DNA of 64,000 bases from Mustelus asterias (taxonomy: Eukaryota). The notes beneath the pieces are model-generated. The model made no database searches. It was not told the origin of the DNA and saw only the letters and a program-made list of their open reading frames with translations. Below, one piece after another: positions 15,190 to 17,483 of this stretch; positions within the stretch are counted from its first letter, which is position 1, and each line of letters opens with the position of its first letter. The stretch is from positions 78,616,001 to 78,680,000 of the forward strand of contig NC_135815.1 of the NCBI RefSeq assembly GCF_964213995.1, written 5' to 3'. Both the position numbers and the translations under genes were made by a program.

Positions 15190-15841
15190 ATCACCTTTGA
15201 AGCAAGACATTAAACCAGGGCCCTATCTCCACTCTTAAGTGGATGTAAGAAAGCCCATAGCATTATTTTGAAGAAGAGCTGGGGGGTTTCCCCCAGTGTC
15301 ATTACCAACATTTTCCTGTCAACTGACAACACTAAAGGATTAACCGGTTATTCACCTCGATGCATTTGCTATGCAATAACTGTTGCACTTTCCTACATGA
15401 TAACAATGATTACATTTCAAAACTGCTTCATATGTTTTAGGACCCCTGAGGTTGCGAAAGGCACTATTTATGTGCAAGTTTGTTTATTTGTTACTATGCA
15501 AATTATGCCAATAGTGGAGTCTAAGGGAAAGATTTTTGTCATGGAGGCAGGAAACCTTCCAACTCGGCAGACCCATCTCCATGGAAATGATGCCCACACA
15601 CACGATTTACGCTCCTGGTGGATAGGGATGGGCGTCAGACCTGCTGCCTCTGAAGGTGGTTCGGAGGTGGTCGGGTGCCATGGCAACTTGCTTAGAAGGC
15701 CTGCCTCAGTTCTCTGAGACTTCAGCCCAGTCTTATAAAAGGGTGTGGAGGCCCCCTAGACCTCACCCTCCACCTCACCCACTCCTATAAGCCCTCATAC
15801 CCACATGCGTATCATGACATCTTTAAACTGTCAATCAAAAC

Positions 15842-16173
15842 ATCGCTTCTCGGCCTTTTGGCTAAGATCAAGTGTAGTATGGATCGCCTGCACTTGGTTG
15901 AGGTCATTAGGTTACGCTGAGGCTTCATATGTTTCATATGAAGCAATTTTTAAAAGCGGCATCTCGGCCTTTTGGCTAAGATGCAAATGAGCTCAAGTCT
16001 TGGAGGAGGATCCTCCCCCTTCTCCAATCAGCTTGACACATGTAGATCAGGCCCAGGACAGGGTGGTTTTGGTCTCCCGTCCTGTCTTGTCAGCCTGGAT
16101 CTGAAATGTCTCAACTTGTTGAGACTCTGAATTGGATTTGATTTGATTGAATTGGAAAAGTATATTTTTAAAA
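15842..16173 (+). mobile_element. U2 snRNA-headed retroposed element (candidate SINEU-like SINE)
   Basis: 15842-15880 is U2 nt 1-39 (ATCGCTTCTCGGCCTTTTGGCTAAGATCAAGTGTAGTAT). A second U2 stem-loop I copy lies at 15962-15982. Short A tail; 17-bp TSD AAACTGTCAATCAAAAC at 15825-15841 and 16174-16190. Confidence 0.85.
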
Positions 16174-17483
16174 AAACTGTCAATCAAAACATGAACTCAA
16201 TCCCCCTGCTGAGGTAAGTGAATTTGGAGCTTTTGAAACTCAAAGCGTTTAAATGGATCAACTGTAATAACACTTCTTGGAAAATGTCAATATTTAAGTG
16301 TATCAGAATTGCAGGAACAGGTAGTATTTTTTAAGCTATATCAATGGCCTGTCAATCAATACACTCCAGCGATGTTTTTTAACTCTGACAGTTACAGCCT
16401 GCTTTCCCCCCACCCCACTTTTGAAGGGCTAGAGATTTAAACAACTTCAGATCATGATACTTAAACAGACATTATCAGCTCTGAAGAGCATTTATGCTTC
16501 CTCCATAAATTAGTGACTCCAATACTGCCCTTGGAACAATGAAAATGGGGTCTAGTTGAACTCAGCACAAATTTCAAATAGCCTTGCTGAGTTTGTGTTT
16601 CCCACCTGTATAGTCCACATGCTGTCCCTTCCTCCGCTAACAAAAATAGGATATGCCAGAAATGGGGCGGCACAGCCCACCATCTTCAAAGGCCTCCAGA
16701 GTCAACTCGACTCTGAAAACCTGGCCCTAAATGTACTTTGTAGGGACATTGAGAAACAATAGAAGTGTTAATAGCAGGCTAATGCTACAGACGAGAGGCT
16801 AATGTATAGAATTCAGAGGTTTGTGACATTTCATGTTCTTTTAAAAAGCATTATCAGGGACATAGACAAGCGGTTTGTTTGCTCATTCTCTGTCTGGGAA
16901 TGGTTTAACATAAATGGGGAACTAAGAAAGAAGAAATTGTATGTTGTTTAAAAAGTACATTAAGCAATCAATAAGTAGTGTGGAGTACTTGAGGAACCAT
17001 TACTGTTTTAGGAAGGAAATAAATATGGAAAACCATAGCCTTATTTTCAATCTGTGCAAAAGACATGGGGAGGGTGTGATTTTCTGCCCCAGTTTCAGCA
17101 ATCAGGAAAGCTGGAGGGGGCAGAGAATCCAACGGAAGTCCCAAAATGTCTTTTATGGCAGTAGGATTTCCTGCTGTGATTGTCCCTGCCCCCTGCCAAT
17201 GACATTGTGCCGGGGGCAGGGGTGTACTCTGGGGACACTCCTATGTTCTTTGGGAGAGTTTCTGGAAGGTTCTGTGTCCACGGGGGGAGGGTTCTGTCCC
17301 TGTGCTGGGGGGTGGGGGGAGGTCAGTTTTTTTGTTTTTACAAAACCCTAATCTGTTAGAAACTAAGGTTGCCAGCGGGGCAGGCTCATTCAAAGCGCCC
17401 TACCAGCATAACTTCACGGGACCCGCTCTTCCATTTTTTGTCTCTAAGTGTTCACAGCTGATGGACTGCTCTCTACTTTTTCC

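Follow-up and report, generated by a model that had tools for sequence, protein, structure and literature searches.

Examination of a 64,000-nt stretch of the Mustelus asterias genome, hereafter the window (NC_135815.1, positions 78,616,001 to 78,680,000 of the forward strand), revealed a short interspersed element on the forward strand at 15842-16173 of the window, consisting of a 328-nt element and a short A run between two copies of a 17-bp target-site duplication (TSD). The two TSD copies, 15825-15841 and 16174-16190, agree at all 17 nt, as an earlier reading made from the sequence alone (the sequence-only reading) had stated; two bases beyond the 17-nt repeat also match, which leaves the 5' edge of the copy ambiguous by 2 nt. 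The head (15842-15880) comprises U2 snRNA nt 1-39 and stops where Keno inserts into U2 (nt 37/38), and the start at U2 nt 1 noted in the same reading is confirmed by identity at 39 of 39 positions to the U2 genes of this genome on C24. The Rfam match to U2 in the window lies above the gathering score (49.3 bits) and no family except U2 did so in a scan of the whole window; the body was rejected as another known RNA, the seven further Rfam matches all falling far under the gathering score.

The head is followed by a linker (15881-15958), the first ~10 nt of which vary between subfamilies and which contains a hairpin at 15922-15944 and a T5 run at 15947, and then by a second U2 piece (15959-15982) corresponding to nt 4-27, 23/24 identical to U2 and with a predicted hairpin, which is possibly an older head. 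The body had been described as mostly non-U2, which holds overall with the exception of this piece. An octamer-like ATGCAAAT at 15981-15988 is kept in 33 of 34 representative copies; an Oct1 site is given as the motif of the distal sequence element (DSE) in PMC5493778, and the conservation seen here may reflect pairing only. The structured body (15983-16125; folding z -4.8) is predicted to form three stem-loop domains, in which the stems are conserved and the loops vary, and the tail (16131-16169) resembles the 3' end of a Keno-type LINE, to which its last 13 nt (16157-16169) are identical. A T run at 16165-16169 precedes the short A tail (16170-16173), which belongs to an A7 run including the first three bases of the TSD, with 4 A outside it. 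A classical Pol III SINE was rejected, as only U2 passes Rfam and four internal runs of 4-5 T lie ahead of the end of the window copy. Elsewhere in the window, open reading frames of at least 130 aa appear by eye to be pieces of other LINEs and low-complexity repeats, with no host gene evident.

Regarding the folding of the body, five helices are paired at 97-99% across the 34 representative copies. The reverse strand folds equally far below shuffles (z -4.9), covariation in the body helices of the 34 copies is not above shuffles (33/500 reach the score), and both sides have changed in 2 of 68 base pairs; covariation as proof of RNA structure was rejected on these grounds.

The window copy certainly belongs, as a young member, to a multicopy family of U2-headed SINEs. 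Searched against DNA, the body returned 2,178 candidates, the best 40 of which are 99-100% identical, and the two alleles of a 3' 23-mer have 2,589 and 2,433 exact matches assembly-wide, giving a family size of at least 5,022 copies as the sum of the two exact words. The young type comprises about 300 copies, a word of its body having 313 exact matches in the whole assembly, and every count by exact words was paired with a reversed control that gave zero. The U2-derived SINE family proposed from the window is therefore borne out, the body being multicopy rather than single-copy, nor does the body occur as a unit independent of the U2 head: among 30 loci chosen by the 3' word, the head is kept in 23 and the other seven are 5'-truncated within the body, with a TSD at the break in four of these seven. 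The same loci bear on the alternative that each copy arose independently as a chimera, by template switching between U2 RNA and the 3' piece of a LINE, an idea to which extra U2 fragments 5' of some copies (L015, L073, L122, L167 and L176) would lend themselves. None of those 30 copies runs on into a LINE, however, one exact head-body junction word is common to 277 copies across the whole assembly, and the full body is present at all 30 junction loci fetched, so that this alternative is largely refuted and hardly credible.

Alignment of 119 bodies shows 17 that are identical, from which the window copy is separated by one position. The subfamily tree (FastTree, midpoint root) is ladder-like from ~80% to 100% identity, and the head-body junction is the place of greatest difference between subfamilies in the 119 bodies. 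Starts among 108 copies, a sample partly picked for heads, lie exactly at U2 nt 1 in 35 and within the head in 100. TSDs exceed chance, being at least 7 nt long in 50 of 82 anchored copies versus 22 of 759 mismatched-flank pairs, and A runs of 4-12 are present in 40 young copies. The element, non-coding and ~330 bp long with a 3' A tail and TSDs, thus has the features of a short SINE (<500 bp). A search of sequencing runs returned part of the body in 20 rows from 12 studies and seven organisms, with shares of 0.28-0.79; no RNA run was listed among the runs with body sequence.

Regarding target sites, the TTT/AAA context noted in the sequence-only reading is present at the window copy and does not extend to the family as a nick motif. 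With the slash marking the nick, dispersed sites have Y/A in 35 of 40 cases and TT/AAA in three of 40, and the argument for an L1-type TT/AAAA nick fails for the family. Extended resemblance of dispersed targets to the U2 site was likewise rejected, with clear information only at positions -1, +1 and +2 of 42 sites, and no match to U2 nt 39-44 was found among the TSD starts of 41 sites. The TSDs of dispersed copies measure 7-23 bp and the flanks of the copies read are varied. Insertion-site reuse far exceeds what the weak nick motif explains: for the first 100 family words on C1, 15 copies have another no more than 1 kb away, against 0.16 expected, with reuse being strong at L012, L060, L124 and L141. 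In 18 tandem pairs, the copy nearer to the young type is upstream in 11 and downstream in two, with five ties.

The U2 arrays on C24 hold a LINE with a zinc-knuckle ORF1 (RBD_ZCCHC3/zf-CCHC) and an APE-RT-zfRVT ORF2, which has a U2 head of its own (nt 5-35) and adjoins U2 nt 38-191 at its 3' end. Pfam matches of ORF2 to Exo_endo_phos and zf-RVT are above cut-off and that to RVT_1 is partial, all three domains being present in homologs of 44-46% identity; an unbroken ORF2 frame of 1,144 aa was found on C21, with amphibian sequences as its closest named homologs (44-47%), the homolog names containing neither Tx1 nor Keno. Keno denotes U2-targeting LINEs of the Tx1 clade (Kojima and Fujiwara, 2004, as cited in PMC4494074, PMC4640811 and PMC6136364). 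The partner LINE is likely a Keno-type Tx1 element, given that its junction at nt 38 matches the 3' target of Keno in U2 as quoted in PMC6136364 and that it has an APE endonuclease, which according to PMC4640811 is present in Keno and lacking in Utopia. Of the two candidates named in the sequence-only reading, Keno (Tx1) is retained and Utopia does not fit because the LINE encodes an APE-type endonuclease. Unlike Keno as described there, this LINE is dispersed, and its full-length copies carry the U2 head behind a U2 upstream region. The assembly contains 286 exact 3' end words of the LINE and all 30 LINE 3' ends sampled on C1-C3 lie outside U2 arrays; strict U2 specificity thus does not hold for this Keno-type LINE, which is weakly specific here.

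The SINE is likely mobilised by this Keno-type LINE, because the two share the U2 site, the tail and TSDs with dispersed ends. SINE copies within U2 genes are followed by nt 38, the same nucleotide as for the LINE, and the TSD of a SINE in a U2-A gene, the type found on C24, corresponds to U2 38-55. Local alignment of the last ~40 nt of the SINE with the LINE 3' end scored 31 (maximum of 200 shuffles, 27) and includes 13 nt of exact identity, and a SINE lies within 1.5 kb of seven of the 30 sampled dispersed LINE 3' ends, three of these sharing one TSD. Comparison of the body with the untranslated regions of such LINEs, as proposed in the sequence-only reading, gives similarity in the ~40-nt 3' tail and, for the 5' UTR, none above shuffles. 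As the Keno 5' UTR in sense orientation the body scored 17, a value reached by 106 of 200 shuffles, and was rejected; an antisense match of 17 nt, which scored 24 against at most 23 in shuffles, was taken as chance. A SIDE-type internal-deletion derivative of Keno was also rejected, with only the ~40-nt tail aligning and no 5' UTR in common.

Promoter capture might be real and the mobiliser another Tx1 family instead of this Keno. Such a family could be sought in a second LINE with a similar end motif that is followed by U2 nt 40, or in a Tx1-like fragment with a U2 4-94 head in L208, and the tail shared with Keno is only ~40 nt long. This alternative is nevertheless improbable, as the U2 sequence behind SINEs in U2 genes resumes at nt 38, as for this Keno, and not at nt 40, and the 13-nt exact terminus and the shared TSDs belong to this Keno family.

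Several further arrangements of Keno-like sequences were observed. A tandem unit of 8,035 bp at C24:44.81-44.94 Mb (L081, L082, L086) carries an intact U2 gene that has been amplified along with a Keno copy, the ORF2 of which is interrupted by a ~350-bp repeat. Members of the second Keno-like family of LINEs, whose 3' ends are similar and adjoin U2 nt 40, not nt 38, were seen in L084, L085:3430-3500 and L086. Short, internally deleted Keno derivatives with a diverged U2 head are located at L083:5650-5980 and L084:6500-6870; the piece before this head we take to resemble the U1 5' end, and these derivatives are possibly a second snRNA-headed non-autonomous element. An old SINE copy at L208:1070-2220 (minus strand) contains two tandem inserts of a Tx1-like 3' fragment with a U2 nt 4-94 head, which join at the internal U2 piece of the SINE.

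Regarding the U2 arrays, on C24 the U2-A upstream region and U2 nt 1-40 run directly into a SINE variant with 81% identity to the window copy, the one U2-A-fused variant found; 5-7 nt of the U2-A upstream flank are present on three dispersed copies, within the TSD in L119. A second array, U2-B on C21, was reached by way of a dispersed cassette on C1; its intact U2-B genes score 170-175 bits, and one of its units has the order upstream spacer, U2 nt 1-39, SINE body, A run and U2 nt 38 onward, the fused SINE being 92% identical to the window body. A master-type locus had been predicted in the sequence-only reading, and this one is preceded by the U2 upstream region and followed by U2 from nt 38; the two options given in that reading, a U2-derived SINE and a derivative transcribed from an interrupted U2 locus, appear to coincide. 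The U2-B array (C21:28.05-28.08 Mb; L183-L186) has a 448-bp unit, is full of Keno copies and contains inversions, and the U2-B variant is ~90% identical to the C24-type U2. At C24:43.02-43.06 Mb (L237-L240), at least seven U2-A units are 16 nt longer, and in the one that was read U2 nt 38-50 are replaced by repeats of upstream U2 sequence, with the Keno site gone.

The assembly contains 16 promoter-proximal ends of U2-B, eight in the C21 array leading into four U2, three Keno and one SINE, and eight dispersed leading into six SINEs, two Keno pieces and no intact U2; one more, more diverged end is present on C2. In five of seven dispersed cassettes tested, a TSD encloses the upstream region together with the element, which identifies dispersed cassettes as retrocopies of RNA running through the fused unit; judged from these retrocopies, fused units were transcribed. 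The upstream flank in a retrocopy is read-through from an upstream unit and no demonstration of initiation at +1. The C14 cassette, itself a retrocopy, has a fused copy 99.3% identical to the young type (~2 positions differing), and the eight copies fused to promoter B lie at several levels of the ladder-like tree. The upstream regions of U2-A and U2-B align at -80 to -35, with 14 of 2,000 shuffles scoring as high, and the position expected for the proximal sequence element (PSE) from PMC4494074 falls in this region; no octamer within one mismatch was found in the 300 nt upstream of either U2 type.

The preferred reading, which we hold to be probable, is that of a SINEU-type element with a Keno-type Tx1 LINE as its mobiliser, transcribed from U2 promoters captured at the Keno site. 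In the first step of the proposed cycle, the Keno ORF2 would nick a U2 gene at nt 37/38, the site seen in the arrays, and copy the SINE RNA, the enzyme being assigned from the likely partnership. The U2 head of the RNA would then join the upstream U2 nt 1-39, with the head putatively guiding the 5' joint by homology, to give the structure observed in the array: upstream region, head, body, A run and U2 nt 38 to the end. Pol II at the external U2 promoter would produce RNA beginning at U2 +1, and Keno, its specificity relaxed, would scatter copies at weak Y/A sites and reuse earlier sites, matching the pattern of dispersed copies. New promoter captures likely found new subfamilies, and most copies would derive from promoter-fused loci.

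U2 genes are targets too, and fused copies could accordingly be sinks. An alternative with the same family and partner therefore holds that fused copies are sinks only, most RNA coming from dispersed copies through a promoter inside the element, a tandem neighbour lying upstream or read-through of host transcription. An in-array young-type promoter-fused copy, as would be expected of a master, was not found in the U2-A gaps or the other U2 loci fetched from this assembly, copies bearing an upstream flank number ~10 among >5,000, the internal octamer-like motif is conserved, and nine of 30 copies lie immediately next to a further SINE or the end of a Keno. Dispersed sources are nonetheless unlikely to provide most of the RNA: among 36 full-start copies, only the U2-A flank is shared over at least 5 nt beyond one pair (the two other matches are single 5-nt pairs), the fused units were transcribed and copied, the Keno LINE has the same fusion of promoter and head, and snRNA promoters are external as described in PMC4494074 and PMC5493778.

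The features of the SINEU class are present in the Mustelus family: the U2-derived head, a length <500 bp, an A tail and TSDs, and amplification as a unit, the last because of the 277 junction words, the 17 identical bodies and the subfamily tree. SINEU-1, -2 and -3 were reported only from crocodilians in Kojima (2015; PMC4494074), SINEU is cited from crocodilians in reviews (PMC5381603; PMC4758252) and it is listed as a Repbase class (PMC5753468). As described in PMC4494074, these elements likewise have internal T runs and repeated U2 pieces, snRNA fragments added at the 5' end, tandem copies sandwiching a TSD and an inferred Tx1 partner, Tx1 LINEs themselves being able to carry snRNA heads. 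Unlike SINEU, for which that paper gives Mariner-N4 as target and no LINE with a shared 3' end, the Mustelus SINE inserts at the Keno site of U2, shares its tail with a LINE and has promoter-fused loci; its layout, compared by description only, also differs from SINEU-2 (U1 plus U2) and SINEU-3 (an internally deleted U2) (PMC4494074). The host is likely elasmobranch and not crocodilian by its own proteins as well: a CR1-type RT from this genome shows 65-67% identity to named proteins of sharks and rays and no more than 53% to those of birds and turtles among the 120 matches listed, where two entries with a bacterial label (69-70%) probably carry the wrong name.

The nearest functional analogue is provided by the R2 SIDEs of Drosophila (Eickbush and Eickbush, 2012; PMC3414825), which are likewise non-autonomous, lie at the site of the LINE in an RNA gene array and need transcription of the host gene. 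According to that paper they have LINE-derived ends and a ribozyme and reside in rDNA, whereas the head of the Mustelus SINE comes from the target gene, its body is not related to its partner LINE and its dispersed copies number >5,000. The U2 insertion site is also that of Utopia (Kojima and Jurka, 2015; PMC4640811), some families of which are weakly specific; the endonuclease of Utopia is restriction-like, and that of the partner LINE an APE. According to the sequence-only reading, no such element is known from elasmobranchs; the literature search found no snRNA-headed SINE from sharks or rays in the records and passages covered, with no match in the parts of PMC10886601 that were covered.

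Taken further, the family may be the first SINEU of a vertebrate other than a crocodilian, and the first for which source loci are available. It would then lack a promoter of its own and use its U2 head as a homing arm to regain, repeatedly, the external U2 promoter at the Keno site; every such event would found a subfamily, and the same trick would drive the partner LINE. We consider the case for this fuller reading to be evenly balanced. Regarding its meaning, transcription of SINEU was left as an open question in PMC4494074, where flanking promoters were suggested and U1 and U2 were described as being without an internal promoter. The Mustelus family offers a testable answer to this question of Kojima, and named U2-fused loci, their retrocopies, very young copies and a LINE whose ORF2 is unbroken allow it to be tested directly. 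The findings suggest that SINEU-type elements emerge in every setting with an active U2-targeting LINE, and the young copies may, if polymorphic, serve as insertion markers for shark or ray populations.
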